DNA of 60,032 nucleotides, filler included, from Dugesia japonica (Eukaryota), in NCBI GenBank assembly GCA_001938525.1. It is 5 parts of 5 records of this genome, joined end to end, with 100 filler letters (N's around TTAATTAATTAA, not from the genome) between each part and the next. Parts side by side here need not be neighbours in the genome. Positions count along the whole stretch, not along the records: positions 25,610 to 39,875 come from MQRL01644319.1; 4 more parts are not named here. One strand, given 5' to 3'. This document shows positions 11,016 to 54,900 of this stretch, one piece after another. Under the pieces are notes generated by a model that worked only from the letters and a program-made list of their open reading frames with translations, did not search any database and had not been told where the DNA came from. The position numbers were made by a program, and so were the translations under genes. The stretch's first letter is position 1. Each line of letters starts with the position of its first letter.

Positions 11016-11115
11016 NNNNNNNNNNNNNNNNNNNNNNNNNNNNNNNNNNNNNNNNNNNNTTAATTAATTAANNNNNNNNNNNNNNNNNNNNNNNNNNNNN
11101 NNNNNNNNNNNNNNN
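11016..11115. other. Artificial scaffold spacer (44N-TTAATTAATTAA-44N)
   Basis: Six-frame-stop 12-mer at 11060-11071, centred in exactly 100 bp. Confidence 0.95.
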
Positions 11116-18090: not shown

Positions 18091-19249
18091 GAAATTAATA
18101 ATGAAATTAAAGTAAATTAATGAATTGGAATTAAAGAAAGAATAAATGAAAGCAAGGAAATGGATATTATCTATTTATATTATATCACTGTTATATTTAT
18201 AGAAGTATTATAAATATATTATTATAAATAATAATTATCAAATAAACAAAGTATATTAATATTATTAGATCACTAAACTCAGTACTGTAAAAAATTAGAA
18301 TTATAATTAAAACAAAAAGTGCAATTTTTATTATTATTGTAATAAATCAGAATAATATTATTTAAAGTTGATGTATTGTTATTATCTGAAAAATAAAAGT
18401 AATTGTTAAATCATTATTATTAATAGAAGCATTGAATATAAACATATAATTTTATTCTGAACCGTTAAAATAAATAAGTATGAATATTATTATGGCATAA
18501 AAGTGGAAAATAATAATAATTATTATTATTAATATTATTATTATTATTAGAAATTGGAATGAAATTGTAAATTATTATTTGTAATTATCTTTGTTTGGAT
18601 TAATTTATAATTAGGTATAAGTACCATTTGAAAATATTTATTATTTATAATTACTAAGGTCACTCTGGTGACATTTGAATTTAAAAACAAAAACGACTAA
18701 AAACGAGTAATTTTGAATTTGTAAAATCATCCAACTATCACTGAAAGTTATAGCTTAAAAGCATCAGCAATGATACGAACGAGTGAGCACATCTAATAGT
18801 ATGTATACAAAACCTTAATATTTAAAGATACAGAGGTTGATTTCTAAATAGAAACGGCAATTTTACAAAGCACTGGGTTATGTGAAAGGATTTCATACAC
18901 AGTAAAAACAAAAATTGTAACGGACCACGATTTCATAAAATATGGTTTGTAATAGTCAAAATTCAGTGAATTCAACTATAGAAGGATTGTACAGAAACAT
19001 CAAAAAAACTAAAATAATCTCTGAATTATATAACTGATTTCCATTGGATGATCATAGTGATCATAGTTCACCTAGAACCAAAACAATATAAAGGAAAATC
19101 ATAAAACTAACAAAGAAACCCTTCTTTTCATCATAAATTTATAATCATGAGAATCGAATTTTGAGAAATCACTATTGTGAGTGTGTTTTGAGAAGCGAGT
19201 TGAAATTGTTGTTTGATTGGTGATCATTTTTATAAAAATCTTTATTTCA

Positions 19250-21140
19250 AATCTGTATGATAACAGTATCTTCCGGAAGTGTAATTCCCAATGGAATACG
19301 CCATTAATCTGCGTTTGGAAAAAGTAAAAAAAAAGGATATACGATTATGCTTAGATTTTAGACACCTCAATGCAATAACAGAAAGACATTCTTTTCCTAT
19401 GCCAAATGTGGACGAAATGCTGGATGCTTTGGAAGGTACACAATATTTTTTCTCAATAAACTTGGAAAAGGCATACTATCAAGTAGAACTCAGTGAGAAC
19501 TTTCAAGAGAAGACAGCTTTCTCGACCAAAAAAGGGCAATTTTGTTTCAATGGAATGCCTTTTAGAATCACGACAGCACCAGGTACGTTCCAGAAAATGA
19601 TGAATAAAGTTAATAATAAAAATAAAATTAATAATAAAGGAGCGATGATTTATCTAAATGATATTCTTATATTTACCGAAACAAAGAAGCAACACTATGA
19701 AATATTCAATAAAGTATTGACATAAATTAAGAATGCTGGTCTAAAAGTTAATTTAGGAGAAATGTTATCCAACTAAAATAAAAGTAGTTAAGAACTTTGT
19801 TAAACCAAAATGCTTTAAGAAGATGAGAAACCTTTTGGAAATTTGCAATTACTATCGCTAGTTTATTAAAGATTATTTGAAAAAGACTAGATTACTGAAA
19901 CAACTTTCTAGTGGACAAAGTAACAAGAAGATTGAATGGGTGAACGAAATAGAAGAAGTTTTTATTGGAATGGAAGAAGCACTTATGATGTCTCTTATAT
20001 TATATTTTACAGATATAAATAGAAGATTTATTCTGGAAACAAATGCGAGCTCCAATACGATTTGGGTAGTACTATCTCAAAGGGACAACAATGGGTAAGG
20101 AAGAATAATTTTAAATGGGTCACACGCAATGACAAGTTATGAGAAAGGATATTCTACTGTGCGGAAAGAATTGATCGCAATTTACTACTTTTGTATTCAT
20201 TTCAAACATTATTTATATGGAAAAATATTTATCTTAAGAACATACTATAAAGCTATTACTTTTATGCTAAATACCAAGAGATCGATAACGTCACAGTTTC
20301 AAACCTGGATTAATTATTTGAGCAGTTTAGATATAAAATTGGAATATAGAAAAGGATCGCTTCATACAAACGCAAATATGTTGTCATGGAATAAATGGAG
20401 TAAACATTTGCACAATGTATAATGTCACATGAAGATCCCAAAAGTGGCAAATTAAAAACAATATGTTAAATACAGTAAATATTCTAGGGAAACAAGACAA
20501 TTTAGGTAAAAATGATGAAGGAACATGGATACCTGATGAAACAGTAGAAGAGGTTATAATGAGAATACACCATCTTTTGTGTCATTCTAAAGCGGAAAAG
20601 TTAACATCATATATGATGCATAATTATAACGCGAAACATTTGTGGAGTAAAGTACAACAAGTTGTGCAAAGTTGTATAACATGCCAGAAAGCTAAAGTAT
20701 TAACAACAAAAACGAAGGAAGAAACAAAAACGACACAGCCATCCGAATTGTTTGAACTGTAATTTATAGATGTGAATGGACCACTTCAGGAAACAAAAAG
20801 TCGAAAAAGATTTGTTCTCGGTATAATTGATCAATACAGTAAGTATATAGCCTTGATAAAATGACAAGACAAGATGAATATACCATAGGGAAAGCAATAT
20901 TGGAGAAGTAGAAATCAAAGTTCGGGCTGATGCATTGCCAGAGATAGAATTTACTTTGAATGCTACAAAAAAGAAGACCATCTGGAAAAGCTCGGAAAGA
21001 TAATAAGCAGAGGAAAATGATACAAAACAGATTCTCAAAGAGAGCACAAATCACAAGATAAAGATATATTGACCAAAAGAAAAAGGTTGGTTATGAGGTA
21101 TTAGTGAAATTAGAAACAAGAAACAAGAACCAAGATCGTT
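19250..21140 (+). mobile_element. Degenerate Gypsy pol (RT, RNase H, partial integrase)
   Basis: RLCLDFRHLN, AYYQVEL, KTAFST, YLNDILIF, HFKHYLYG, HHLLCH...CITCQK. Confidence 0.9.
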
Positions 21141-22050: not shown

Positions 22051-24069
22051 GATTAATATTTTTGTCTGGTAGCATTTTTTATTTTGTTTAGATCACCATT
22101 ATTTGAATTGATTTGTATGTGGATTTTATCTTCAGTTTTAACTTTCTCGGAAATTCTCAAATTTAATTCTGACTGAAATTTTAAAAGAACTCAATTATAA
22201 AATCAATAATAAATATTTAATTATTTCAATGTTTAAAAATTCTCAACATTCTGCAAATATTCTGTAAAAATAAGTAATTAATAATGGATATTTAAATTTT
22301 TTGAACATTGAAAATGAATATATTTTTCCTGGTTAAAAATGAAAAGGTTAAATTAAATCATATGCAAACTTATTTGTTTTAGATTAAATTAATATAGATT
22401 TTAAAATTGATAAAGATTTACTTTGTTGATAAATTTAATTGGTTTTTAACAAAAAATAAAATAATAAAAAATATAAATTAAAATAATATATGATAAATAA
22501 AATGAAATATTTTCTACTACTGTAATATTAAAAAAAAATTATTTAAAAACAAAAATTTATAAAATGAAATAAATAATAAACTCATAAATTGAAGAAACAT
22601 TTCGTACAACAATAACCTATCTATTTAATGAGTTATGCCTGATTGATTCTTTTAAATATCAGTCGTCGTAAAAATTTAGAATTTTTATTTTTCTAAATTA
22701 AAATAAATTAAAAATTAATATTAATAAATTAAATTAATTAATTAATAAATTAAAATTAAAATCTATGAAAAACCGATTTTTAACATCTTTTTTGGATTAT
22801 TTATTTCAACTGTTTTAGTATTTGCGTTTTAAAATTTAAATTATTTCAATTCCTAGTACAATGCTTTCTTTTATTTTAAAAAATACTTTTATTATTAATT
22901 CGTAGATGAAAGTATGAAAAATATGACACAATCTCGAGAAGAAATATATCTGAAGCTACAAATTAATAGGCATTTGAATGAATAAAAATTAAAACAGCAA
23001 GTGAATTTCTGCCGTGGTTTGAATTTACCCGATAAACTCTTAGACAGATATTATAAAAAGCCGAAAGCTGTGCTATTAGCTAAATAAAATTCAGTCACAA
23101 GACCTCTCAAATGTGGTGTCCTTTATTTTTGAAGCAATATGTGGCCTAGATATACCATACACAATTTCACAGGACGTCTTTATCTCATTAATTGTTGTTT
23201 AAGCTCAAAATTGTGACTGACTCGGATTTATTAGTTTTATAGTGATTGACAGAAAGTGTATCACCGGGTTCTAACGGCTCATAATATATCACGTTCTCAA
23301 TATCCCACCAAATGTAAATTATTATATTTTTTTCTGAAAGGATTAAGCTTTGAAACCGATATTCGTGGTTTTCCAGAATTTAATAATGACTCTTTACGCT
23401 TCGGATAATCATATTGTAAGGATTGCTCATCCCTTGTCACAATTTTCTACAAGGACGACTGTCAACACTGTCTATTGAGAAGAGAGAAAGACGGATTTCC
23501 ATTTGTTGATCTTTCTTTGATTGAGGGAATTCATGCGGGACACATTTTCCTTCATTTTTTATTTTAAAATTTAGAAACAATTTACTGAGTGGTAAGTGCA
23601 AAAGAATCTGCCGAATATTATAAACATATTATTCGTTGAGCAAGAATATCAACTAAAATTGATAGGACAGAGTTATTTTGGAAGCGAATAACTTCCAAAA
23701 CGTTTATTATTAAATAGGAGAATTGAACTTTTAAAGAAGAATATTTTAAATCACTGGAAGCCTAGAATTTATATTTCAATTTGTCTGCTATTACTTGATG
23801 TGAAATGAATGGAAAACAATAAAAGTTAAACAGATATTATTTAATTTGTATAACAGTAACGTTGGCTTTATATTTCAATGTCTATATCGACTTCACAAAA
23901 TTTCGTGTAACGTAAATTGATCTTTGTACGAGGAATTACTGTATAATATAATGTATTTATTTGTGTATATTTATAAGTGTGTATTTTGTGTGTTTNNNNN
24001 NNNNNNNNNNNNNNNNNNNNNNNNNNNNNNTTTCATTTAAATTCAAATAAATATTACAAAATAACTCAC

Positions 24070-24517
24070 ATATCCAAATAATAACACATATTAGTTTAGC
24101 ATCCCGAAGTGACATTGTTCGATTTGTCCACGGTAATGTGATAGCAATAAAACGACTTGTTGTCAATCCAAGAAGCATTAAGGATGCAGTATACAATGTA
24201 ACCTGTTTTAATTAAAAATATATTGATGTTTATTAATTGAGAGTACATAAAAACCCTACATAAACTGCATAATTCAATAATTTGCATAAAACTATTCCGA
24301 AAATCCATTTTTGAAATATGTAGTGCATCATTGTTATTGGAACTGTTGATAATAGAAAAACCATATCCGATAATGCAAGACCAATACAGAATATTTCATA
24401 AACTTGTTTATTTTTACACGGAACCAAAATGAGTATAGCAAATGCATTGCCTATTATTCCTACGGCTGAAATCGATATTGGGAAAATTAATAATTGATTG
24501 AAATGATATGAACTCAT
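24070..24517 (-). CDS. Class A (rhodopsin-like) peptide GPCR, exons covering TM1-TM4 (24517-24260 and 24202-24070)
   Basis: GIIGNAF (TM1), GLALSDMVF (TM2), WIFGIVLCK. A 57-nt GT-AG intron at 24259-24203 restores the frame YAVY|VTLYTAS...TSRFIAI. A GTGAGT donor follows IIWI. Downstream exons were not identified. Confidence 0.85.
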
Positions 24518-25442
24518 ATTGGGATGGATATACAACTGTTATCGTTTTGAATGTTTACAACAAACATGCTTAAATTTCAAAGTCATTTTAATTAACCAAT
24601 TAAAATCATTCAATATATGATTGGTTTAAATTACAAATTATAATTTTCATTGATTTTTAATTATCATTTTGAAAAATTAAATAAATAAAATAAATAAAAT
24701 TCAATTTATAAAACATGTTTAGTTAACATCATGGATAAACATAATCTAAAAATAATTTTTCGCCAGTTTAATATTATACAGGCATTTAAAATAATATGAA
24801 TTAAATTTTTCTCAAATTATTTAGCTTGTTTTCTTGCTATCAGCCAAAAGCTTGTTAGAGTATTAATGAAGAATTAAAAAAGAATAAAAATTTTTATTCA
24901 TATTCTTCATCATTATTTTTTTTTGAAAATTTCAATATAGTACAAAATATCAAATAACTACTCGTGATTTTTAATCTTCAACATCACTGCTATCGGCTTA
25001 GTAACGAATAATTGTTTACAAAAGAAAACGGAAAGATTATCTGTAAAGTATTTGTAAAAACATTATACAACAGCAGCTAATAAATATTCTTTTTAAAACT
25101 TCTGATAAATTTACCACATTTGTCATACTTTAACTACTCGATAGTAAGTTTAAGTAAATTGCTTTTTTTGTTCATTTTATATTGAAACAATTATATAAAT
25201 TAAGAACAATTGTCTTTTGCATAAGTTTATTAATTTTAATAAAGTTCAAATGTGAAATTGTATTAAAATGAATGATTACATAAATATATCAAAATATATA
25301 ATTGAAGTAAAAGAAAACCAAAGATCCGATAAAATGAATGCATAGATGAGAGTCACTGCTACTTTTCGGAAATGTGGTACACTTAATAAACACTTAAACT
25401 AAATTAATCTACTAAATGCAAATCAAAATACACTGTTATGAC

Positions 25443-25509: not shown

Positions 25510-25609
25510 NNNNNNNNNNNNNNNNNNNNNNNNNNNNNNNNNNNNNNNNNNNNTTAATTAATTAANNNNNNNNNNNNNNNNNNNNNNNNNNNNNNNNNNN
25601 NNNNNNNNN
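25510..25609. other. Artificial scaffold spacer
   Basis: 44N-TTAATTAATTAA-44N. Confidence 0.95.
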
Positions 25610-26780
25610 TTTCCGACTTCCGTGGCCGACCTGGCCCTCTATGTTCCGTCGCAGTGGGCTCGGTGCTTGCGGCCGGTGTAGCTTCTTCTTTTATCGCTGC
25701 TTTTTTGCACAAGTTGGTGTGATATATTTTTGGTTTCTCCAACAGGTTTCCTTTCTTCCGCACTTTGAGATTTGTTTCCGTTACTTCGATTACTTCATAA
25801 GGTCCTTGCTATGGCCTTTTTAATTTCGATGTTGAACCGACACAAATGTCTGGTAAATTGATTAATACCATGTCGCCATTTTTAACGGAATGTTGCACTG
25901 CTGATTTATCGTGTAAATCTTTATAGCTCTCCTGGTAGAATCCTACATTCTCCTTGGCTTGTTTCATATTTTCTGCATGGTCTCCTTGAAATTTTCAGCA
26001 AAATCCGTTTCATCTTGATATTGTGTTATCGGTGGCTGGAATTCCAAGTCAATAGGCATGTTACATTCTCTCCCATACATAAGATCAAATGGCGTGTATT
26101 TGGTGGCAGGGTGCACACTCATTCGATATGCGAACAGGCATAGTTGAATATGTTTATCCCAGTTATTTTGTTCCTTCTGCGCGTAACTAGACAGCATGTT
26201 GATCAAGGTTTTATTGAACCTCTCTGTTAATCCATCCGTTTGAGGATGATAAAGTGATGTCCGTAACTGGTGTATTTTGAGGAAGTTCGATACTTCTGCT
26301 AATATATTGCTCATGAAATTTTTTCCTTGGTCGGTCAATATTTTCTTTGGTGTGCCATATCTGCTATTAAATTTTCGTACCAGAATATCGGCTATAGTTA
26401 TGGCCTTTTGATTTTTCATTGGAAATGTCTCTGGGAATTTAGATAAATAATCCATTATGGTAAGTATTTAAATATTTCCGCTTAGCGTTGGTGGTATAGG
26501 TCCAACAACATCCATAGCGATGATTTCCATTGGTGCGGCTGGTACCGCGATTGGTTTCAATAATGCTTTTACTCTTTTGCCTGTTCCTCTTCTGGCGTCA
26601 TATATTTGGCATTTAGCAATCCATTCCTTCATAGATTCTGTCATATGCGGCCAGTAATATTTCTGTCTTAATTTTGATTCGGTTTTCTTGTGGGACATAG
26701 GTCCTCCTAATACACCATTGTGATATTGTTCAAGTAGCTTATCCCGTCTTGCCTTAGGAATGACTAGCACAGTATTATCT
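25610..26780 (-). pseudogene. Integrase of the giant element, with C-terminal AT-hook-like GRPRK
   Basis: YHNGVLGG...KYYWPHM...CQ, IAMDVVGP, ILTDQGKNF, YHPQTDGLTERFNKTL, HRGPGRPRKS. Confidence 0.92.
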
Positions 26781-27049
26781 CCGTCCTGAGCTGTCAACCA
26801 TCCTTTAGTAATTGAATAACGCCCTCCTTTTTTCTTTAAATGTACCTTCATCTTGGGTTCACATTCTAACTTCTCCAAGTTATAATTTTTCATATATTTC
26901 GTGATGATCTTGATCTCCTTGTCATCCGCCTGTGCTTGTTTCAATCCATCGAAGTTTTTGTCTTCAGCGAATATAAAGTATACCATTCCTACTTTTTTCT
27001 CCAACAATTCTCGAAATGTAAAGGTTTCTGTATCATCAGGTGTGTTCTC

Positions 27050-27880
27050 CATATTTTCCGGTCCACCGATTCTGGACAGGCAATCAACATTCGAGTTTGC
27101 TTTATCCGTTTTAAACTTTAACAGGGGGCAATACTCCTGCATTGCCAGTTGCCACTTGGCTATTCGATTCCATCGTAATGGTTTCTGGGCCATAAACGTG
27201 ATTGGTAAGTGGTCCGTATAGATTAACACCTCGTGACCATGTATAAGTGATCGAAAATGTTTAGTGGCTTTCACAATAGCCATTATCTCTCGTTCTGTTG
27301 TGCTGTAATTTAACTCTGCTCCTTGAAATCTTTTGCTAAAATATGCAATTACTCTTTCCCTTCCTTGTTCATCCAATTGGCTTAATATGGCACCCATGGT
27401 GTAACCACTAGCGTCAGTGGCTAAAATAAATGGCTTTTTGAAATCAGGATGTACCAGAATTGGTGCAGTTAGTAACTTATCTCNNNNNNNNNNNNNNNNN
27501 NNNNNNNNNNNNNNNNNNNNNNNNNNNNNNNNNCCCCATATAAATGCAGTATCTTGTTTGACCAATTCTTGCATGGGTTTTGCGATTTTTGCGAAATCTT
27601 TGATAAAATTTCGATAATAGTTTGCGAGTCTTTAAAACTCCAGTATCTTGAGTACACAATTAGGAGGTGCTAAGTTCCTGATTTTCTCCGTGTTTCTTGG
27701 GTCTGGCTCTTTTCCTTTATCTGATATCAAATGGCTCAAATATGTCACTCGCATTTGGTGGGTTTCAGTTTTAGATTCCATTTACGTAATCGTACAAACA
27801 CACTACGCAAGTCATTAAGGTGCCCTTCAAAGGTTGGCGAATAAATTAATAGATAGTCGATATAAGCCATACATTGAGAT
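27050..27880 (-). pseudogene. RT C-terminal half (N-terminal half deleted), connection and RNase H
   Basis: CMAYIDYLLIYS (degenerate YxDD), LKLKPTKC, ANYYRNFIKDFAKIA, FILATDASG, NYSTTEREIMAIV, IYTDHLP. Confidence 0.9.
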
Positions 27881-28289
27881 ATGCCGTGGGTTACGTAATT
27901 CATGATCTTTCACATGGGTATGCCTCTCTAATGATTGTAATCGTAACGTTGAAAAGTTTAATATACCGTTTTTCATCAGTACGCGAAAAATATATGTTCC
28001 TAGAATACACTGTCCCATCAGGTTTTGTTTTCCATGTTGGTTCTCGTTCTTGGAACCTTATCCAATCGTTCCTTATCAAGGTGGCTGTATTGGTCATTTT
28101 CTGACGGTCTTGATTTGAATTGTTTTGTTCATTTCGATCAGTTGGTCACTGTCGCAGCCGGTTGGGTGTTGGCGGATTCCATTGTTGTGCTCGTTTCTGT
28201 TGGGTTATTATTCGATTTTTCTGATATCCTACCGGTGTATACTCTTGATCATAGTTTTCTCNTATCGTTAGTTTTCTCAAATCCAATAT

Positions 28290-28580
28290 TCCCTCCGGAC
28301 AAAGGCGTGGCAAGAGGTCCAACCCCAATAGACAGTCGAATGTTAATTCGTTCATTATTTGTAGTTTATGCCAGAAACGGATTCCGTCGCTTTCTATCGC
28401 ACATATTGCTTCTCCAACGGGTGATACTTTTTCTCCAGAGGCTGTGATGATAACTCCTTTAGTTATAGTTATTGAAGTAGTCGATAATCTTCCAATATTC
28501 TCTTATCTACTAACGTCGTGCTTGCTCCTGTATCGATAATGGCTATTACCCATCTTACGTCTATATTTATCCTTTTTTGT
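28290..28580 (-). pseudogene. Retroviral-type aspartic protease
   Basis: IAIIDTGASTT, IITASGE and FDCLLGLDLL, across small frameshifts. Confidence 0.88.
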
Positions 28581-28762
28581 AGTAGTTTTGCCCTCTGAGA
28601 AATCATCATACATACGGTCTGGGTTACTAATTTTTCATCCTCCGTGATTTGGTTATTCGGAGAACGCAGATTTTGGTCAGGCATTCTTCTGTCAATAGTT
28701 GATACATTGTTCTCTGTTAATAATGCCACATTGGAAGCTTGTGGTGGATTTATATATGAATT

Positions 28763-31105
28763 TTACATGTGACCCGATGCCCATACCTGTTGTGGTGGTT
28801 GATTCATGAGTTGCCACCCATGTTGTGGGTAGGCGTTGAAGTAAATCTGTTCTAGTGCTGGTGTATTTTCACTTCCTCCGAATTTTAACGCGTTTCTCAG
28901 TCGTTGTATTTCACTGATTTTTTCGTATTGTTGTCTTTTGAACTCTGCCTCATATTCCATGGCAGTTTTATAACTGGGTACGTGGGGTGTTCTACTGCTA
29001 TCTCCTCTATCGTCATCACTGCTGTTACTACTTTCGTCTTTGTTCTTAAATCTTTCTTTAAATTGATTGAAATATGATATTTTCTTTTTCGCATTGCTTA
29101 TTTCTTCGCACAATAGTCGGAGTTGCATAATAACTTCCTTGTCTGATCCTCTGATTTTTCCGAGTTTCCGAATAAATCGTTTTACTCTGTCGATGTCTTT
29201 GAAGTGGCTATTAAGCACCATAGTTTTGGCTAGAAATGGAAATATTCCCGTTATCATTTTCCAATTCACCTTCTTCTCTCTTTTATATATGTCAAAATAT
29301 GCAAATAATTGAGTAATCACTATTCGTGTTACCGAAATTATCAGCATAACTCCCAACAATCCTGCCATTGCTTGTCCAAATATGATGAATCGTCCCCACA
29401 TCTTCCGCATGACGTTTTCTGTGGCTTTTTGAAAGTGGTCCGCTGATAATAGTGCGTCATAATTTACTCGACCATCTATGTTGGTCCCACTAGTTAACTG
29501 CACTATATTGGATAGGATTTGCATCCTTCGGACTGGAAACAGCATATATTCCCTGGCTTTCTCTAGGTCTTCCCTGCTGTAGATTCCTCCTTTGTTTACG
29601 TCAATTGGAGTGAATTGCATACCTCCATTTAACCGTAACATGGAGAATTTCCGTGGGTTCGATTCCTACTGTCATTCGTTGCGGAAATCGTATCCATGAA
29701 CCATCGGTCATTATGTATTGCGGTCCAAATACTTTGGAGCAATTTATGATATTTGGCTTATATCCCAATGGGGATATGATTCGAGTAATTGGTTGCACAT
29801 AACGTTTTTCGTTGTTGTGGATAATTTCTATTTCATTGTAGCAGTTTTTTGGATTAGACGAGAACTCAGCATCTATGGCTTTGCATTTGTATAGATACAT
29901 TACTTCTCCGACCACTCGACCGAATTGTCCTTTTTCCAACGGGAGTAGTGGAGTGACACTATCTGGGTTTGTAACTGCCATTGCTAACTTTGTCTTTAGT
30001 ATTTCTTTATTTAATGTGCAGTCATTTTGAATGAGATCGTGGTAAATTCGTCCCATGGTGTCCTGCATTCGATGGAATAAGTTGTCCATTTTATTATTGG
30101 CGTATAGATGCAATTTAATATCTTGTGACATTACTGCGGCTTGCGCTGTTTTTATTCGATGTTCTGATACGAATATTCCTTTATAGTTCGTTTTATACAC
30201 TATTTGACCACACTTTGACATCGAATTGCCTTTAATTAACCGGATGGTCTCATCCTGTTCCGAATACATTAGCACTGTAGGCGTTGTGTGCCATTGTTGA
30301 TCGTATGATCTTGGACCTGACCTTATCGTTTCCTTGAGATGATCTATCCTATCTTTTAGATTACCCTCCTTTGGGTCTTGATCAATAGGTGTTATAGCGC
30401 GGTGTCCTTGGTATTCATTGAACATTGCTTCCTTTAGGTGTGCTAACTTACAATCCTGGTGATCTACTTTGTTTGTCAATGTTGATGTACCTGTATTACA
30501 TGATCCATCTGCTGCTTTGCAATACGACCTTCCTTTCATAGTCAAATCTATGCCTCGTATTCCTTGAGTTCTACTGTATAGGTTTCGATTGCTACCGCAT
30601 ACTGCCAGACCTTTCCTCGTATAGTGTATGTACCATATTCNNNNNNNNNNNNNNNNNNNNNNNNNNNNNNNNNNNNNNNNNNNNNNNNGTCAATTACATG
30701 CCCTTTCTTGGCGATGACTTGAGTCCCATGTTTGATGGTGATCTTTCCTGTGGCAAATCTTTCATCACATTGTTGTCCAGTTAAATGAACGGGGTGTCTC
30801 ACTGTCCCTGGATCAATTATTGAAGTGTAGCCTTGATACCCACAATGAAATATAAATGTTTTTACCGTTACCGCACACTCGCGTACTTGGGCCTTATAGT
30901 AATCAGATTCTTGATATAAATGGTAGATGGAATTATTACGTAGTGAGATTTTCTCCGGGTTTGCATCGGGGCATTNNNNNNNNNNNNNNNNNNNNNNNNN
31001 NNNNNNNNNNNNNNNNNNNNNNNNNNNNNNNNNNNNNNNNNNNNNNNNNNNNNNNNCCATCATTAAGAATAACAAGAGTATTGTAGTGGTTAACGCTTGC
31101 CAAGA
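28763..31105 (-). pseudogene. Envelope glycoprotein, chuvirus-G-like (class III fusion) with signal, Cys-rich ectodomain, TM and tail
   Basis: Signal WQALTTTILLLFLMM. Ectodomain motifs LYQES...ECAV...FHCG, DCTLNKEILKTKLA, GRVVGEVMYLYKC, CYNEI, QPITRII, NCS...PQY, GIYSREDL...MLFP. TM GRFIIFGQAMAGLLGVMLIISV (~29398-29294). Frameshifts at ~30548 and ~29640. Confidence 0.8.
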
Positions 31106-31213
31106 GTTTCTGCGAGGCCAACGTGTCAATCCATTCTCGATCTCATTTAACTGATCCCGAACAATCCTGATTACCCTAGTTGCATTTTCGTGAGATGACT
31201 GAGGCTTAGCGCA

Positions 31214-31606
31214 TATGGCCTCAATAAACTTTTTCCACCCCCCATGCTGCTTTATTAACGGCACTATCTTCTTCTGCATTAGATCCACTATTGGTAATTT
31301 ACTGAGAATGAAGTTTTTTGACGGCTTGCTTCTAGCGATTGATAGATGCGTTTGATTAATCAGATGTGCTATAGATACTACTATTCTTCCCTTTGTTGGC
31401 TGATCTTGTAACAATTCATCCATTACACCTTCTAAATTATCTCTTGCACTATGACTAGTACCTTTAGTTGCAGGGAATTTCTTAATAGCTGCTTCTATTT
31501 CTTTGGCCAAAGGTCTGAGATTATCTGATAGTTGAAATTTCCCATTCCATATTTTTAATTCCAGATATAGCATTAGCAGTAACTGCCGTATTACTACTTC
31601 GGTTGG
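31214..31606 (-). pseudogene. Bcl-2-like domain within the polyprotein
   Basis: BH3-like LRPLAKEIE, BH1-like VMDELLQDQPTKGRIVVSI (ELLQDQPTKGRIV core at ~31417-31379) and BH2-like LIKQHGGWKKF (GGW at 31243-31235), in canonical order and spacing. Confidence 0.75.
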
Positions 31607-32328
31607 TATGTCATCATCTGTCGAATTTTCGTGGTATCTATCTTGTGATACCGTTGCTAATCGCTTAGTTTGATGAGTTATGGATGTGGCTAATCGTTTT
31701 TGTTTCAATGCTTCTTCCTCCTCTGGATTTCCCGGAGGTTTTGTTCTTGGTCGACCTCTATTACGAGGTTGCGTAATTGTTTCCGCATCCACTCGGGTAC
31801 GTACTGGTTTTGGCGGTACTTCTTCTTCTTCGGTTTCTATTGGATTTTCCATCTTTACGTGGTGGTTTGTATCCATTAGATCATCCATTACTGAGGATGG
31901 TAATTCTTTTGCTATTCTACTTAATATTGTTGATAATGGTTGGTCTTCCAATACGTCTTCCTCTTCCAAGTTAACCTTGCTAGGGTCGTATTTTTTACTT
32001 TGGGCTGGCTCTTTAACCTTTATTTCTTCACTTTTCCTAGTTGGAGGAGAATATTTTGTAATTTGCAACTCGTTTTCATCTTCCTCTGATTCGTCTGCTG
32101 ATGGTGATCCGAATATTTCGCGTTCCCATTCTTGGCTTGTTTTGGGAGTTTCCTTGGTTTCCCGGGAACTTCAGCGCTCCCAGATTGATCTGTGGTAGGT
32201 TTCAATATTTTACTAGCCGCTAATTGTGTGCGGTGTTTATATGCTTTTAGCATACTTGAGGTCTCTCCCATTATTGGTCTGGTTTTATCTGCTGCTTTAT
32301 AAGGATCTGCGTCTTTTCGAGTGAGAGT

Positions 32329-35300
32329 GCCTCCTAATTCGGGAAAAATCCCCAACGTTTTATGTTTAATTAAATCTATTTTCATTAGTCCAATTGGTAT
32401 GGTATCTTCCACTAGTCCACCTTCATCCACGAGTTTGTATGGTGGTTTAAATGGCTACTTGTCTCGTAGGTGTTTTACCGTATTATATACCGGTATTTTA
32501 ACCGTGATTTTGTCCCCTTCTGGATAGATTATTCTGAATTTAACTTCGAATGGCGTGGTTTGTCCCATCTCCGCTTTCCACCATTTAACCAGAATTTTAT
32601 TAAACTGAATGGGATCCCATGTATGAGATATTTTAATGGCCAAGATTAATCGTCGCAACTTTCTAAGATCTTCTACTGCCAGATCTTGTTGTAAGGCTAT
32701 ATTGATCGTTGTATGATTTCTAGCGTTATTAACTTATCACCTACTAGCAACTCGAACAATTTCGGTAAATTGTCTTCTGGTTTCTCGTCTTTGACCGGGG
32801 TGTTGGTTAGAGCTGCTACCATCTCTACTCGTTGTTTATTTTGCTCTTGTTTAGGGAGCTTGGCTCCGGCGAATACTAATGGGTGTATCTCTTCTATGTA
32901 ATATTCCACTACTTCTCTAGCTTCTTGTTTCCATATCTCCTCCGAGACCCGTGGTCGTCGTCTCTTCTCATCCTTTGCTGTTACGTAGATTTTTAATTTA
33001 TTACCTGGCCAAACCCTCATATATTTCACTGGTAATCTCATTTGATCTAGTTCTATTACCTGGTTGTAATAAAGTACTATATCATCTTCCTGCAATAATG
33101 GTTGCATTCTGGTTTCTTCTTCTTCAAGGTTACTCTGTTGGTTCATAAATTTTATAATCCTTTTCCGCAACTTAGACCATGGTTTGATCATTTAACCCTG
33201 CCACTGGATTTCGCTTTTATCCGGAAATTCGATTGTTACTGCAACGGCTTCATTGGTTATCATTCGAACTGCTTTATTTAATATTGCATCCATTATGTCT
33301 TCAGGCATTTGACTTATAGCTCGTAATTGATTTAGCTTTAGAACTAATTGAATGACTTTGNNNNNTCTTAATAGTTCCAAGTTTTCTTCCAAGGTTAAGA
33401 GTATTTTCATTATTACTCGCGCCAGACTTCCCCATGTTTTACTGTCTTCCCATAACTCAATATTTATCTCCATTGTTCTGTCATCGACTACTTCGAATAA
33501 CTGTCCACTGTTGATTTCTTGTTCGTATAGTTCCTCTAGTTGTTGTAATACTTCCCCCATAGATTTAACTGGGCCTGGAATGTAATCGCCTGGTTTTTGG
33601 ATTTGAAGAAATGTATTTTCACCAGGTCTTAGCCCTACGTCCATTAGATGTTGTTTTCCTTCAAATTTTATGGAGAATCTCAAATGGTCGGTCGTGATTG
33701 CATAATTTTTCTGTTGGTCAGCTATATCTAGTGATTCTATAATTTCCTGTAATTCCCCAGCTGATGTACTATTAAAATGTGGTATATGCATGACAGCCAT
33801 ATCCGGTTCCTTCCTTGATTTCTTGTTTCGTGTCAGATATTCTATTGTGACCTGAAAATTCTCTCCTTTGGCGCTTGTCTTCACTGCACCGATATACGGC
33901 TTGATTACTGATTCCCATTTAGCACGTTCTTCTCTTGCTATTTCAGTATACTTTGCCAGATCCATTAGTAAATTTAATGCCTTCCAAAATGCTGTCCGAG
34001 GTTTTCTTTCCTGGAAATAACAGAAATCAGAAATTATCTTCGATATCCACTCTGCCTGCTGGGAACTGAAAGGACCAGCGAATTCCTGTTTAAATGGTAT
34101 CAACCGAGGTTGGCTAATATCCTCTGAGCATCCTTCCTCCTGGTCCTCTTCATCGGAGGTTAGGTCCATGGTGTCATGGTCATTACCCCGAACCATGTTT
34201 ATCTGGGCTTTGTTTTCGCCATAAGTGTTTATAAGTCGTTCATTCTCTACCGGTAGTATTTCTTGTAGATATAGGCTCATCATAATTAATATGAATTGAT
34301 CGGTATCCGGCGTTTTTGGTATCGGTATGTCGATGGTCATTTTACGTGATGTTAATTTAATGTCTGTGATCTCCCCTGGTTTGATATCATGTAGAAAGAT
34401 GTGGTCCCCTTTCTCGGCTTATATAATCATTGTTGCTCCTGCCTGCATTTTATAGGACTTGAGCGATTTTGGCCATAGCCATTTCTTGATTGTTTTTATA
34501 ATATGGTTGATCGTTAATCCTTCCAGCGTTATCATATCTACCTTTTTTATGCTTCTATCTTTATTAAGGAGGCTGACTCTGATAGAATAGTCGGATATGG
34601 TAGATGTATTTTGCACTTCCTCTTCGTATAAGTTTTTCTCTTTCCACCATTGTGCTCGAGCCCACAAGCTGAGTTGTCCATATATTGCCAAATCCCGTAG
34701 ATTATTAATCATTTTCCAATATACTTTGATATTCACGATTGGTCGAGTTTCTCGGGTTACTCTTAGTAGATCATTGATAGCGTGAAACGTGGCGGATTCC
34801 TCCGTTATTGGTTTCGTATAATTCATTCGAATATCACGTATTGTTGGTGTGCCTTCTGGGAATACGACGGATTTTGTAGTAATTATTGGCAAGTTATCGA
34901 TATTCTGTATTTTCTGATTCTCTTTTACTTGTTCCTTTATGCCATACAATACTTCGGATACGTACAATTCTGTTATCTCTTCCATTCGCTCCTCGAGATC
35001 TGGTGATTGATCCGTCCGCGGCTCCTCGTCTACATCTAACTCACATATTTATCCAGGCTTTGCGTTGCATTGAAATATGTGTTTGTCCTCGTCGTCGGTC
35101 TCAACGAATTTGCCATTTATGAACACAGGTACCATGTTTAGTCCTTGTTCTCGCCACTTATCGGTAATGGCATCCATTAAATCCATCATGGTTATTCCTT
35201 GTGGTTTTAATCTACTATATTTAGTCAGTTCCTGTTCATGTTTATCTATATTTAAATATAATTTATAATCCCGAATTTTGGTAGTTGCCAATATTTCTTC

Positions 35301-36130
35301 GGCGTACTTCTGTCTAATCATGAGCCACTGGTTCTCGATTTCCTCGATAATTTCTAATCCATCATATATGTCGTAAATTCTATTCATTATCATCCAATAG
35401 GTTTCTCGAGGTAATTTTTCCTTCTCTATCTGTACTCAGTTAACTATTTCTTCCACTTTACGCATTGCTACCACCTCTCTTGATGGCATTTGCCGCATTC
35501 TTATCATGTTGCATTTGCCTTCTCTTCTCTCTAATCTTTGTTTGAGAAAATCATAACGCGTCATCAACAACTGTTTTCTCTCCTCCATTGTTAGTTTGTC
35601 TTTCTTCCCAAGTACTGTGGAAAGTATTTCGATTTTAATCGGTTCTAACCCTTGTTTATATAGGTACTCCATTTCTTCCATGATTTCTAAAGCTGATCTT
35701 CCGGTTTTTGCTATCCAGATGTCGTAGTCGATACCAGGGTGTTTGTCCAATACTACGATTTCAATGTCCTCTCCTGTTTTTACTCCAAAATCATATAGAT
35801 GTTTCTTTCTGGCGTTAAAATATACAATAGCACTTGGAGTGCATACATATTTATCGGTTATGCATGGATAACCGGCTTGCTTAAGCGCGGCTTCCAGATC
35901 TTCTACCATTAATCATGTGAGTGTCAGTTTCATATTTCCCTCCGGGTTATACAGCCATACTTAGTAATCCGATAATCTCATGCTGGATATTACCCACTCG
36001 GAATGCACTAGTAACCATTCTGTCCAATCGCTTTCGCACTCGGTGATTAGTTGTATCACTTCCAATAATTCAACCAATCGATTTGTCAACTTTAGGTATA
36101 CTTCTTTCTTTATCGTATCATTAGTAGACG
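32329..36130 (-). repeat. Six diverged protein repeats (~190-250 aa each): helical domain + ubiquitin-like fold
   Basis: Recurring LYxxEI, (Y/F)WxxxNxLxD...W and DYxV motifs. Unit ends are HLYDFGVKTGEDIEI, HIFQCNAKPG*ICEL, HIFLHDIKPGEITDI, HLMDVGLRPGENTFL, VKYMRVWPGNKLKI and EDTIPIGLM...FPELGG. Confidence 0.65.
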
Positions 36131-36149
36131 CTCGAGCTCTAGAATAGGT

Positions 36150-39100
36150 AGAGTTTTCTCGATTAGCAGTGGAGTTTTTGATCCGAAGATTAATAGATTA
36201 TATGATAGGGCTGGTGATATTGAGAGTATTTGAGCAGCTTATTATCTTTTTGCAGAAGTTAAATGACAGCGAATCGTATTTTCTGATATNNNNNNNNNNN
36301 NNNNNNNNNNNNNNNNNNNNNNNNNNNNNNNNNNNNNNNNNNNNNNNNNCTTTAATCATTTTGGTATTTTTAATATGATTTAAGAAGTCCTTGTGATTTG
36401 AGATAAGAACTGAGCCAAGAGGGATATCTTAGTCAGTAATATGGTTGAGAAAGATATTAGCCTGATGTGTGAGAATTTTCCCATTGTAAGATGATTTTTG
36501 AATATTACCAGGAGTAAAACCGATTTACAGGCTGAAGAGAAAGTAGTGGAAGTAGCTACTATTATTCCGGATAGCACATTTGCTATAGAATTTATGGAAT
36601 TAGAGCAGTTACAAGACGCTCAATCTATTATAAATAAATTAGGAAACGAGATCTTTTCAGTTCCCAGATGGGATGTAAACATTAAAAGCATATTGAGTTG
36701 GATGTTGACATTACATACTTCAACTGAAGTTCTAAAAGAGGTAATACCATTAATATTACTGTTGGTTGATAAACCAAGCAGTTATCAAAATGAAATTAGA
36801 ATTTTAATTAGAAAAGATAGGGAAGCCATGAGGCATGATCCTGTCAGACAGGCCCATTTTATTGTTGACACAAGAGTACCCAGTGAGGTGGTACCAAAAA
36901 TAAAGAGATATTCGTGTTTCACAAATGTGTTAAAACTGAAAGCGGGTATCGGAATAACATACCCACAAACGTGTTTGATAGTAATTTGGGGTAATCAAGT
37001 TGATGATCATGTAATCATGTTGGATGTTTACAAACTAAAACTACGCTAGTCAATGTGTTGATAGTAGAGCCATCTGATCACCATTGGACTATGTTGCGCT
37101 TGCCGGAAGTATCCGAGGTTGCACAGAATCAAGAAGCATCAATAGTGTAAGAGACGGAAATGTATATAACTCGACAAAATCAAGAAATGCCAGTGGATTT
37201 GGATGAGCCAGAACCGGTCAATTTACTGAATATACCACAAAAAATATTCTCTGAGAAAGCAAGTGATACCTGAAATGTACAAGGCAACAATCTGGGAGCA
37301 TGCACCTCCAGAGAATTAGAAAAGAGAAGACAACCAAGAGTTAAAAAGAGAGGTAGACCGAAAAAGAATACTAATTCTTAGCCGGTGGACATAAATCCGA
37401 GCCAGGGCATTAAAAGCCATATTTGGTGAAATATATCAAGGGAATATAGGGAATGAACCAGCAATGTCAGATACATGCTGTAAAATTCTGCAATTAATCA
37501 GAGTATTAAAACCCGAGTTAAAAATTGAAAAAGTTGGACGTTGGGATCCAAGCAAATTAGCCTTGTCACTAAAGACAGTTATTAGAAAGTAACTAAGGAA
37601 GTTGCCTGATAAAAATAAAAGGAACACAATTCATACGTTACCTGCTCAAGGTATTACAAATGGGTGAGTTTGTTTTCAGAGCAAACTGGCTGGGATATTC
37701 ACATATCCACAAGCTTATTCGCGTATCGTAACAAAGCACATTCAATTACATGTTATTTACCGTTTTATTTGATGGATCTGAGAAATAGCAACATGCCGGT
37801 GGATCTTGAATTTCAAACACCATTATCGCAGTACCTTGATGAGAGCAAGTATCTGCTCGAATTGAAAGATAGGATGCAAATAACTTGGCCAAAAGCTAAC
37901 TTAAGTATTAGATATTCGCAAAAAGGAATGAAAGAGGCATTTGATAAAAAGACTAAACAGCACGAATATAAAATGCAAGATTTAGTAATGCTCGAAGGGC
38001 ATAATAATACAAAAGGTTTGTCACTGAAATTGATACGAAATTATAAGGGACCTTATGAGGTACTAAAAACGACAGAAACTAATTTAGGCTTACAATTGTG
38101 TTCTAACAGAAAAACGGAACCTATACTAGTACATGTAAATAGGTGCAAAAGGTATTATACAATTGATGAGCAAGTTAAAAACAAAGAGACAAAAGTCAAG
38201 GAAAAGACAAAAAGGTCTTCAACAAACATTCAAGAATCTTGCAATAGATATCCACTAAGATCACAAACGTATTCGCAAACATTGATAATTATTGCAATAA
38301 TCAGTTGTCTTAATGTGGTCAGTGCGCAGATAGAATTTCAACCCAAAGCAGTACCTATGGAGAAAATAATATTACGTAGATGGTATTACAAATTCTCTAT
38401 AAGGACAACGGTCGAATTGACATTTAATTACCACATAGGGTTTATTTCCGATGGAANAGTGACAAATTACAAGAAAGAACACAGGAATAGAGAGGTTAAT
38501 ATAACTAATTTAAAGGCTAACTATACCCATTCTATGCAGTGTTGGTATCAGTAATTCAAATCCGTATATTGGGAGACTGTACGAACCACCGGATGGTATC
38601 TTACGACTTTGCCAATAAACAAAGTAGTAATATCGTACAAAAAATCATGTCTATTTTTCACGAAAGTACATACAGAGNNNNNNNNNNNNNNNNNNNNNNN
38701 NNNNNNNNNNNNNNNNNNNNNNNNNNNNNNNNNNNNNNNNNNNNNNNNTATCGGGAGAGGGTTTTTTGGACTCAACTCTGATATAAAAATTAGATATTAT
38801 CGACAGCAAGAGGGATCAACAGCCACATATATGGTATGCTCAGAAAAAAACTTAGTAAAAAACCAATTTCCAGAAAATTAAATGCAAATTTCTGGAATAG
38901 AATTAAAATATATCAGATAAATGTTAGCTTGGAAAAGGCAGCACTTAAAATTGCCTTAGCACAGTGTAATTGTTCTACTTCGACTCCGTTAAATAACAAG
39001 GCTAACAGCAAGATGCAAAAACGTATCCAGATGATAGTAGGTGGACCCTGAACAAAGGAATGCAGTACCATCGTACATTTGCTCTATCTTCCAAAGTTTA

Positions 39101-39700
39101 TGCAGACATTGAATCCGGCGATCCTTTTGTAATTTCGCACCGATACGGAACAAATGTTGCTCTTGACCCATTGGCTATGGATTCAATTATAGAAGAAGGT
39201 CCTAGCCTTAGAACGGAAGACCTGTCTAAAGTGGACACTTTAAGTAAATCTAGAGATCCAAATCTTTGGCAAAAACAAGTTGCCAAGTTTAAATGACCAA
39301 TTCAATATTACTGTGATCGTCCGGTCCAACACACAGCTATTACGGAATCCCACCTCGATAAAAATCGTTTGGAAGTCAGTGGACAACCATTTATCAATTC
39401 GCCATCTGTGTATGTGTACGAACATACAGAAGTCCCTTTCGTTGTAACTCCCAGATTTACCAAGCGAAAGAAAAAATTAGTAAAGGAAATTCTTAATAAA
39501 GTAGAAGAAAATTCAAAAAGGAAGAAATTAATTCCTTGTGTATCCAAACAGAATAAAGAAACTGAAAAGAACGAAGAAGGAATTTCCTAGAAGAAGTCTC
39601 AATCAAAGAAGAAGAAGATCCTCAAGTGAGCACTAGTCCGTCGAGGCTATGATCCGCTCTACTCAACATCTCGAACACTAGCATGTAATGATATGAACCG
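36150..39700 (+). mobile_element. Second, diverged giant Gypsy-type element with a large internal deletion: Ubl-like, AT-hook, start of Bcl-2-like region // integrase C-terminus, signal-peptide ORF
   Basis: KRGRPKK at 37346-37366. ILQLIRVLKPELKI...LRKLP resembles IRQLLLMLYLELKI...IKKFP of the minus element. WDIHISTSLFAYR...NMPVDLEFQ resembles WDKHIQLCLFAYR...NMPIDLEFQ. Also GPY and VHVNRCK. Confidence 0.75.
37664..38554 (+). pseudogene. Integrase C-terminus fused in frame to a signal-peptide-led unknown protein
   Basis: YKGPYEV and VHVNRCKRYY, then RYPLRS-QTYSQ-TLIIIAIISCLNVVSA-QIEF. Confidence 0.7.
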
Positions 39701-39875
39701 TTCGAGCAATATTCGANAACAATCAATAAACAATTAATCTGATTTTTTTTGTGATCCAATTGCAGTTTATATGTATATATTTGACATTTTTAATTGTGTG
39801 CTATGTGATTTGAACTATTAATCATCATTAGTGTTTTGTACAAATAATATATTTTACTATTCATCGCTTATTTTT

Positions 39876-39975
39876 NNNNNNNNNNNNNNNNNNNNNNNNN
39901 NNNNNNNNNNNNNNNNNNNTTAATTAATTAANNNNNNNNNNNNNNNNNNNNNNNNNNNNNNNNNNNNNNNNNNNN
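39876..39975. other. Artificial scaffold spacer
   Basis: 44N-TTAATTAATTAA-44N. Confidence 0.95.
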
Positions 39976-48278: not shown

Positions 48279-48378
48279 NNNNNNNNNNNNNNNNNNNNNN
48301 NNNNNNNNNNNNNNNNNNNNNNTTAATTAATTAANNNNNNNNNNNNNNNNNNNNNNNNNNNNNNNNNNNNNNNNNNNN
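48279..48378. other. Artificial scaffold spacer
   Basis: 44N-TTAATTAATTAA-44N. Confidence 0.95.
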
Positions 48379-51985: not shown

Positions 51986-54900
51986 ACAAAAGACAAACAT
52001 TTGTTAAACATTTCTAATAACTTGTGCAGATAGTAAAAAGGCAGAAGAAGAAATAATCTTGCAAAAATGGGAAAAAGTAGAAGATATAAAAGAAACACTA
52101 TCATTGCTTGAAAAAATAGAAAAAAGAGAACCTATAAATGTAGTAAAAAACTAAGTGGGTCTAACACGTAGAGAGTGTACTTGAGAGAGAAGGCAAAATA
52201 TCGAGAGAGTTACAAAAAGAACAGAACTACAGTGTTGGACATGCCAGAGTTATGGACATACAAAAAGAGAGTGTACAAAAGTTTCTCATGTGGAATGTTA
52301 GACTTGTCACAAAAAATGCATTTAGGTAAACATTTTCCAGATAATAAACCACCAAAATTTTTTGGGTGTGGTAAGATTAGTCATATCAAAACGATGGGCA
52401 CATAAATTATATGTGATAGATGTAAAAGACCGGGTTACAGAGCCAAAGAATGTTATTTGAGAATTAGTCAACCTAGACTAGAAGAGAAAAGATACACCTT
52501 TAAAAGCGGACAACAAACAAAAGATTAAAGTCAGACCAAACCAATTCATGCCATTCGAGAAGAGGATGATAATCAGAATGAAGAGGTATTTTTGAGAGCA
52601 TTATATAAAACGATGATCCAAGAAGAGAATACCCAAAAGGTAGGGCTTCATCACCAGAGGAGTTGGTCGCAGCCATTCATTAAACGAGTTAACGCTTGAA
52701 TATCCTCAAGAGGCCGAGAAATTGTAGGAGACGAGTAAAGTCAGAGAAAAGGTTTACAGATTCATGAAAAGAGAAAGATTCAATAATGAGGAAGTTAACA
52801 AAAGAGAAATTATAGGAGCAATTGAAGAGAAACAGAACATATAAATTTCATATAATAAATTGCAAGAGAGACCAAGCATTTCAGTGATGATCAATGGTGA
52901 ACAGTTCAATTGTTTGTTAAATACAAGAGCAAGAATAAATGTAATGAGCATGAATGGATTCAGTAGACTCGGAGAAACAATGTTAGAGAAAAGCAAGGAA
53001 CAATTGCATTGCGCGAATAACAGCTTATTGGACACAATTAGAAGGATACGTGTCAAAGTTATAGTTTCTGAGGTGTGCAAGGAAGTAACATTTAAAATGG
53101 TAGAGAAACTAAAACCAAATCTTATTGGTGGAGTAGAATTTTAGAATATTGTTGTGTATCATCCTCAAAAAAAGTGCAGTGCAGAAATCAATAATCATCG
53201 AGAACAATTTGTTTGCAACATCGAGAAAAAAATTGGAAGGCAAATACAAACAGGTGAATAATTGAGACATGCAATGGGGATTCTAGAAATAAACAAATAT
53301 CATAGATTGACTGCAATTAATCACTAAAGGAGGTNNNNNNNNNNNNNNNNNNNNNNNNNNNNNNNNNNNNNNNNNNNNNNNNNNAAAGGAGGTCCAATCA
53401 ACATAAAACCATATCGTCAACCAATGAATCTAGGAGAGAAGATTGAAGAGGCCATCAAAAATCTGTATGATAACAGTATCATCCGGAAGTGTATTTGGCA
53501 ATCGAATACACTATTATTCTGCATGTGTAAAAATGAAAAAAAGGATATATGATTATGCTTAGACTTTAGACAGATCAATGCAATATCAGAAAGACAAGCT
53601 TTTCCTTTGTCAAATGTGGATGAAATGCTGGATGCTTTGGAAGGTACACAGTATTTTAGCTCAATAGACTTGGGAAATGCATACTACCAAGTAGAACTCA
53701 GTGAAGATTCTCAAGAAAAAATGGCTTTTTCAACTAAACAAGAGCAATTTTGTTTCAACTGAATGCCTTGTGGAATTTCAGCAGCACCAGGTACGTTCCA
53801 GGAAATTATGAATAAAGTAATCGGAAAAATAAAAGGAGCGATGGTTTATCTAGACGATATTCTGATATTTACCGAAGCAAAGGAGCAACACTATGAAATA
53901 GTCACTAAAGTATTGACATACATTACTAATGTTAGTCTAAGAGTTAATCCGGAAAAATGTCAATTAATGCTTAAGGAAATAAATTTTTGGCACACGTTAT
54001 CAGTAAAAAAAGGTGTCAAAACAGATCCAACTAAAATAGAAGCAATTAAGAATTTTGGTAAACCAAAATTCATTAAGAAGATGAGAAGCTTTTTAGAAAT
54101 TTGCAAATAAAGATTATTCGAAAAAAAGCTAGATTGCTGGAACAACTGTGTAGTTGGCCGAGTAACAAGGAAATTGAATTGGCGAACGAATAAGAAGGTT
54201 TAAATGGAATGAAAGAAGCACTAATAATACCTCCGATATTATGTTTTCCAGATATAAATAGAGGATTTAATTTGACACGGAAGCACGTTTCGATAAGATT
54301 GGGGCAGTACTATCTCAAAGGGACAGAAATGGGCAAGAAAGAGTTATTGCATATGAAACACACGCAATGACGAGTCATGAGAAAGGATATTGTCTTACGC
54401 GGAAAGAATTAATCGCAATTTACTACTTTTGTATTCATTTGAAACATTACTTATATGGAATGAGATTCATCTTTAGAACAGACCATAAAGCTATCACTTT
54501 TATGCTAAATACCAAGAAGCCAATTACATCACAGTTTCAAACCTGGTTTTATTATTTGTAGATATAAAATCGGTGTAGATATAAAATCGGAATATAGGAA
54601 AAGATCACTTCAAACAAATGCGGATATGTTGTCAAGGAGTAAATGCCATACATGTTCACAATGTCTGATTTCACATGAAGATCCCAAAACTGGATAATTA
54701 CAAACAAGGATGTTAAATACAGTAGATATTCAAAAAATAGGCAATTTTGTAGAAAATAATGAAGGAACATGGACATCTGATGATAAAGTATAATAAGTTA
54801 TATTGAGGATAAACGATATTTTGTATCATGTTGGAGCACAAAAGATAGCGGCGTATATGAAGCATAAATATAACGTGAAACATTTGATGAGCAAAGTACA

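Follow-up and report, generated by a model that had tools for sequence, protein, structure and literature searches.

We analysed a 60,032-nt stretch of DNA (hereafter the window) from the Dugesia japonica assembly GCA_001938525.1. Its positions 25,610 to 39,875, from record MQRL01644319.1, hold what is likely a decayed, envelope (env)-carrying Ty3/gypsy copy with env ahead of pol, of the Burro type, elements reportedly credited to Jurka 2007 and Grohme 2018. Our preferred account, which we consider probable, is that this broken Burro-type copy bears a Bcl-2-fold domain upstream of the env signal peptide, and that in intact copies cleavage of that signal would leave the Bcl-2 domain tethered at the endoplasmic reticulum (ER).

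Translation of the minus strand shows a stop-free frame (32170-30551) that passes from the Bcl-2-like domain through a hydrophobic run and a gap of N's into a chuvirus/gB-type envelope. The predicted Bcl-2-fold domain, of seven helices (31214..31603), contains a helix at the BH3 position (LRPLAKEI, 31519-31496), the BH1-like ELLQDQPTKGRIV (31417-31379) and the BH2-like IKQHGGWKKF (31255-31226). It is followed by a linker (31103..31213), weakly conserved and of differing length among relatives, at whose end lies the basic RWPRR (31123-31109), 34 aa past the BH2-like motif and likely the n-region of a signal. Next comes the hydrophobic run (31058..31102; Kyte-Doolittle 11-mer maximum 2.37 over 31102-31058), likely the h-region of an internal signal peptide of env. 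The run enters an 81-nt N gap (30976..31056), left unfilled here, which conceals the expected cleavage site and the beginning of env; its 28 unreadable codons keep the frame, and env resumes at 30973. The initial annotation had noted BH3-, BH1- and BH2-like motifs and, about 35 aa later, RWPRR and a hydrophobic run leading into the glycoprotein; this holds, and all of them lie in the one stop-free minus-strand frame.

The domain almost certainly has a Bcl-2 fold, a conclusion that is well supported yet predicted. The Pfam Bcl-2 profile PF00452 matches it with E 1.6e-4 (22.6 bits, under the curated cut-off). Used singly against sequences of the Protein Data Bank (PDB) the domain gave a weak result (best E 0.75), with Bcl-xL in 31/32 rows; a profile of eight aligned sequences (the window and seven relatives) reached Bcl-xL with E 1.1e-5, and the 60 rows shown of 189 were all Bcl-2 family. 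AlphaFold, run on the eight-row alignment, produced a model of pLDDT 67 (79-86 in the core helices), and when this was searched against 48,161 chains, ranks 1-21 were all Bcl-2 family, led by BAK (Z 10.7, rmsd 3.1, 128 aligned residues), the top 12 aligning over 118-131 residues and unrelated chains appearing only from Z 6.8 down. The profile and structure checks proposed by the initial annotation both came out in favor of Bcl-2. Among the Foldseek rows shown, 42/43 named Bcl-2-family entries, and eight of the top nine viral rows in a BFVD search were viral Bcl-2 (vBcl-2) or E1B proteins (best E 0.11). Bcl-2-clan clusters of the ESM Atlas scored 0.90-0.92, with a recognition value under threshold; the top one, at 0.92, is a mixed E1B-19K/Bcl-2 cluster and does not settle the donor of the domain. 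A single-sequence AlphaFold model (pLDDT 43) was dropped for the eight-row model, its fold search having returned helical hairpins only.

Relatives were collected by searching the Bcl-2-to-env stretch against 1.84 billion representatives, which gave 39 matches (the P numbers below); P0041, a spurious repeat match, was dropped. Three word-index homolog searches found nothing, and scanning metagenomic and viral contigs for related loci likewise gave no result. A profile of the relatives' pol finds Ty3 reverse transcriptase (RT; E 1.6e-42). Seven relatives (P0003, P0005, P0008, P0012, P0024, P0030, P0031) encode the Bcl-2 domain, the hydrophobic run and env within a single uninterrupted open reading frame (ORF). 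That of P0005 continues from env into the protease (PR), and that of P0008 also contains zf-CCHC, with the Bcl-2 domain continuous with Gag. The break across the N gap that the initial annotation had raised as a danger to its reading looks very unlikely: 81 nt keeps the frame, and these seven ORFs are intact. In the window 39 aa separate the hydrophobic core from the env Cys, as against 35-48 across 16 relatives; between BH2 and the same Cys the window has 87 aa and seven rows have 69-98. Because both spacings lie within the relatives' range, the gap fits an in-frame junction.

More than 100 residues precede the env start in 16 relatives, seven with Bcl-2 and nine without. A profile of the Bcl-2 columns, on which the seven score high by construction, matched none of the nine; the best E that it gave to a non-Bcl-2 protein was 0.81. 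Within the nine, P0015 is likely mis-joined, P0029 is BEL/Pao-type and several others may begin past the place where a Bcl-2 domain would lie; the most convincing Bcl-2-less case is P0009, with zf-CCHC Gag knuckles and 892 aa upstream of env, none of it matching Bcl-2. The relatives' Bcl-2 domains are 11-38% identical to one another. In a tree of the env N-terminus (27 rows; P0012, P0030 and P0031 were left out, as were rows of insufficient length or without a YDC motif), Bcl-2-bearing and Bcl-2-less rows mix in an open 18-row fork, and because of this fork the tree does not settle gain versus loss of Bcl-2.

Signal peptides were judged by a hydropathy script (15-mer of at least 1.5) together with small residues at positions -3 and -1, the von Heijne rule for signal-peptide cleavage. 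Scoring covered 29 of the 39 rows, leaving out seven without an env start motif and three with too little upstream sequence. The hydrophobic run lies ahead of env in 27/29, and the small-residue pattern for a cut three residues before YDC is present in 24/29; offsets of 2, 4 and 5 residues gave 0, 5 and 5. The nine relatives with more than 100 aa upstream and no Bcl-2 match still have the signal, and in all eight long relatives checked a transmembrane (TM)-like 19-mer lies past the ectodomain. Judged by sequence, the run is likely built as cleavable signal peptides are, independent of Bcl-2, and likely belongs to the env module, the Bcl-2 domain being an optional passenger that borrows the signal as its anchor. 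The run follows the Bcl-2 domain, yet it is common to Bcl-2-less relatives and continues into env. Because it is equally present where Bcl-2 is lacking, we read it as env's own signal rather than a recruited Bcl-2 tail. The proposal that a Bcl-2 anchor doubles as the env signal therefore stands in part: the run is likely an internal signal that, once cut, would keep the protein ahead of it tethered, and the in-frame link to env is unbroken in seven relatives. Recruitment of a Bcl-2 tail finds no support.

Several observations weigh against our account. The curated PF00452 cut-off is 31.4 bits, above the score obtained here; the Z of 10.7 to BAK falls short of about 13, the level under which the tool advises caution with helical folds; and Foldseek returned nothing at E <= 0.001. 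The NWGR of BH1 is eroded, reading TKGR in the window, and across the seven rows that cover the motif Trp is kept in 0/7, Gly in 1/7 and Arg/Lys in 7/7; the window domain thus lacks the canonical pro-survival NWGR signature and is not placed in that subfamily. The BH3-like motif of the initial annotation survives as a helix at the BH3 position, an assignment by position only; it lacks Gly-Asp, and the motif is not conserved in relatives. (BH2 fares better, with GGW or QGW in 8/8 rows; in place of the preceding Trp the window has Leu and P0003 has Tyr.) All four rows failing the strict (-3,-1) rule (P0003, P0005, P0031, P0042) bear Bcl-2, i.e. failures are 4/8 among Bcl-2-bearing rows versus 0/21 among the others, two of the four coming from one cluster; these failures may arise partly from the exclusion of Thr at -1 and from an insertion in P0031 and P0042. 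The hydrophobic core is short, with a best 19-mer Kyte-Doolittle score of 1.03-2.01 in Bcl-2 rows, and a lasting anchor is not assured. The cleavage site of the window copy falls within the N gap, where it cannot be read, and among the contig pieces and reads listed none spans the gap.

In intact copies, cytosolic translation of the polyprotein would start with Gag and proceed until the internal signal inserts co-translationally into the ER membrane and signal peptidase cuts just before the env start, placing the env N-terminus in the lumen; we hold this insertion and cleavage to be very likely. The C-terminal TM segment of env would then return PR, RT, RNase H (RH) and integrase (IN) to the cytosol, and the upstream product would end in the signal remnant, giving it a tail-anchored topology on the cytosolic face of the ER. 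For the remnant serving as a lasting anchor we put the chances at about even. The same anchor logic is found in the Flaviviridae, unrelated RNA viruses: at the core-E1 junction of hepatitis C virus (HCV), the internal signal of the downstream glycoprotein is retained at the C-terminus of the cytosolic protein before it and anchors that protein, and the remnant on core is later cut by signal peptide peptidase. The remnant in the planarian elements could be cut again in a like manner. What is held at the ER would be a Gag-linked precursor, from which the element protease may free the domain. Since the domain of P0008 is continuous with Gag, a free Bcl-2 protein needs another cut, and the free vBcl-2 that had been suggested as the product is not what signal cleavage would yield.

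The domain may damp a death or stress response of the host at the ER during particle production, a role for which we find the case suggestive and short of probable; an anti-apoptotic activity is uncertain because the BH1 NWGR is eroded. It is rather doubtful that the element makes a working Bcl-2 mimic whose sole anchor is the cleaved env signal, which would put a vBcl-2, with a non-NWGR groove and repeatedly gained or lost, outside DNA viruses. On that doubtful reading, every env molecule delivered to the ER would leave behind a single death-regulating domain at the surface of the ER, and particle production would thereby be tied to host-cell survival; if the domain works, a reverse-transcribing element would carry a Bcl-2 mimic in a ratio to env fixed at 1:1 by the polyprotein.

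A different history, which we think unlikely, is that a captured Bcl-2 gene brought along its tail anchor, which was recruited as the env signal, and that a free anti-apoptotic vBcl-2 protects stem or germ cells. The spacing and orientation of BH2, linker and hydrophobic run would suit it, as would the retention of the BH1 Arg/Lys (7/7) and of the BH2 GGW/QGW (8/8), and viral Bcl-2 proteins without clear BH motifs, some of poxviruses among them, can still block apoptosis (PMC11209288). Set against this are the same run and cleavage pattern in Bcl-2-less relatives, including one with a distant BEL/Pao-type env, and the fusion of the domain to Gag in P0008. The eroded NWGR also speaks against it: the Gly and Arg of BH1 are described as important for interactions in the family, and a like change in ORFV125, to SPGR, goes with about 250-fold weaker binding of Puma (PMC9027176). 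Protection of stem cells would further sit poorly with BURRO1, which is described as PIWI-silenced in neoblasts and as escaping repression once cells have differentiated (PMC8532177).

It is also improbable, in our estimate, that the chief task of the remnant is to hold the Gag precursor at the membrane in which env collects, the Bcl-2 fold being either non-apoptotic (interfering with autophagy or innate signalling, or acting in assembly) or freed into the cytosol by further intramembrane cleavage. Gag-signal-env ORFs without Bcl-2 do exist (P0009), the groove motifs are poorly conserved in domains as little as 11% and at most 38% identical, and the non-apoptotic poxvirus Bcl-2 folds A52 and A46 appear in the fold list, at lower ranks. 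The best structural and sequence matches are instead the apoptosis regulators BAK, BCL-2, A179L and Bcl-xL, and Burro is reported with other apoptosis-related domains such as BIR (PMC6431247). That the adjacency of Bcl-2 and env is an artefact of the copy or its assembly, the N gap hiding a break or join, is very hard to credit: the junction is unreadable, other breaks are many and no listed read or contig crosses the gap, but seven independent relatives are unbroken, the gap length matches and the same order has been published (PMC6431247).

Our preferred account, a Bcl-2-fold domain tethered by the env signal, can be set beside several known systems. Burro (GYPSM1) comprises giant gypsy-like long terminal repeat (LTR) retrotransposons of planarians, about 30 kb or more, with BCL2-env-PR-RT in one polyprotein, a giant ORF starting from Gag and CCHC, and Ubi2/SUMO-like, MATH, BIR, ankyrin and Smc domains upstream of BCL2 (PMC6431247). 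The window shows the same order of BCL2-like domain, env and PR-RT-RH-IN (PMC6431247), an env related to mononegavirus-type fusion glycoproteins, a long upstream polyprotein and high copy number; for the Burro family, too, copies degraded by stops and frameshifts have been reported. This likeness is one of layout, judged against the published description rather than the Burro1-4 sequences. The window copy differs in that it is broken and truncated and shows no gag, LTR, MATH, BIR or ankyrin in the part covered, and no Pfam match to the Burro accessory domains was found in the 4 kb upstream of its Bcl-2 domain. Bcl-2 beside env in a retroelement is thus already in print (PMC6431247); the initial annotation had held Bcl-2 homologs to be untypical of retroelements, and the Burro report of a BCL2-like motif with in-frame env and protease overturns that. 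The section on Burro in this review says nothing on a signal peptide or anchor and leaves open whether the elements meddle with host apoptosis (PMC6431247). A literature search of limited coverage did not find the signal-as-anchor idea in print. With the headline in print and the window copy dead, the surprise is limited; what is added is structural backing for the fold, a defined proposed topology (cytosolic side of the ER, with the env signal as anchor), seven intact junctions and Bcl-2-less relatives as controls, which make the apoptosis question left by the Burro review testable.

The flatworm GAG-ENV-POL errantiviruses (Smed_errantivirus_1-6, from Schmidtea) have an HSV/gB-type ectodomain between a signal/TM and a TM segment (PMC13524379). 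Like them, the window has a gB/chuvirus-type env (PF24664) before a Ty3/gypsy pol, and the flanks of the ectodomain are found in the relatives (upstream run in 27/29, TM-like 19-mer in 8/8). By eye, a 13-residue stretch of env is identical to the Smed_errantivirus_5 row, rows 5 and 6 being closest to the window env, and P0015 nearly matches the Smed_errantivirus_1 row. They differ in that 'Bcl' has no occurrence in the main text or seven supplements of the errantivirus paper as available, whose listed elements were chosen as intact (PMC13524379). The vBcl-2 proteins of DNA viruses (African swine fever virus (ASFV) A179L, KsBcl-2, BHRF1, adenovirus E1B-19K) resemble the window domain in predicted fold (A179L Z 9.3, KsBcl-2 Z 8.0), in eroded BH motifs and in a C-terminal hydrophobic segment. 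Unlike the window domain, which sits in a polyprotein and whose sole anchor would be the ER-directed env signal, they are stand-alone genes and often mitochondrial. The excerpts of PMC12440569 and PMC10175614 held nothing further on Bcl-2.

The remainder of the element extends along the minus strand in the order Bcl-2, env, PR, RT, RH, IN. Env (28766..30975) is in three pieces that match consecutive parts of PF24664 (56-182, 245-467 and 471-578; E 4.7e-12, 2.1e-35 and 4.2e-20), with frame changes near 30550-30640 and 29600-29665; the last piece has a C-terminal hydrophobic segment and tail. Against PDB sequences, env had no match under E 0.19. A stop separates the env tail from a split aspartic-protease-like remnant (28149..28762) with IIDTGAS, weakly matched by Pfam gag-asp_proteas (E 0.041). 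There follow an RT remnant (27635..27909), its C-terminal part only (RVT_1 positions 134-190, E 4.5e-7), the RNase H and integrase zinc-finger region (26471..27631; RT_RNaseH E 1.3e-35, Integrase_H2C2 E 1.2e-13), and the integrase core and C-terminal part (25611..26467; rve E 3.1e-8), 54% identical to the P0011 integrase. The copy is broken at several places: the frame changes within env, a stop precedes the protease, RT is largely absent, and further stops lie in pol and upstream. Its limits are a spacer block (25510-25609) on one side and other sequence near 36300 on the other.

Immediately upstream of the Bcl-2 domain lies an acidic/basic low-complexity linker (31604..32170, minus strand) with an AT-hook-like RGRPR at 31759-31745. 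A GRPR motif recurs at the integrase end (25640-25615, minus strand), and GRP[RK] occurs upstream of env in 4/16 relatives. Beyond the linker is a decayed upstream polyprotein region (32171..36197, minus strand) with several stops and frame changes, no Pfam match at E 0.01, and neither gag nor LTR in view. It includes three diverged repeats of about 210 aa (35400-33800, minus strand), 21-26% identical (E 9e-6 to 2e-3) and without a Pfam match. By eye, a ubiquitin-like stretch with a Gly-Gly end and one stop inside lies just upstream of the Bcl-2 frame (32550-32320, minus strand); this impression is unconfirmed, there being no Pfam match and no such domain found by a five-relative profile against PDB. 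Were it real, host proteases could release the Bcl-2 part.

Family DNA is abundant: contigs of two sequencing runs of one organism gave 13,763 and 17,966 pieces, mostly 90-95% alike, covering 30/30 bins of 27700-36200. These counts are what a high-copy diverged family gives and are not a copy number. About a quarter of the reads of each of two oligo-dT RNA runs yielded 36 and 3 matching reads, nearly all partial fits. None of the 39 was at least 99% alike to the window copy, which points to trace transcription of related copies and not of the window copy.

We note some peculiar relatives: (i) P0028, a gag-env-pol polyprotein, is labelled as a protein of a Flavobacteriaceae metagenome-assembled genome (MAG) and likely comes from animal DNA that was binned with bacterial sequence. 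(ii) P0015 joins mitochondrial ribosomal protein L47 to a signal and env start, likely a mis-joined gene call or a host-gene insertion. (iii) P0011, P0020 and P0028 have hydrophobic segments past the integrase as well. A second gypsy-like remnant of the window (37619-38881, plus strand), whose integrase C-terminus is 52% identical to the element's own IN, runs from integrase into an in-frame signal-peptide-like stretch and then an ectodomain-like stretch of no known kind. Together with the segments in (iii), this suggests a possible second membrane protein after pol.

Elsewhere in the window, four identical 100-nt blocks of N's around TTAATTAATTAA, a six-frame stop, lie at 11016-11115, 25510-25609, 39876-39975 and 48279-48378; they are likely artificial contig joins, and the sequences flanking them may not be genomic neighbours. 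Pieces of a rhodopsin-family G-protein-coupled receptor (23960-24538, minus strand; 7tm_1 E 1.7e-9 and 1.6e-5) likely belong to a host gene or to a pseudogene. At 796-1251 on the plus strand, amid AT-rich and repetitive sequence, lies a match to PCIF1_WW (E 5.3e-19), a domain of cap m6Am methyltransferase type. A different gypsy pol is present in two copies (19176-21000 and 53300-55470), 79-88% identical and about 34.2 kb apart, with further inverted fragments near 16000, 50500 and 51500.

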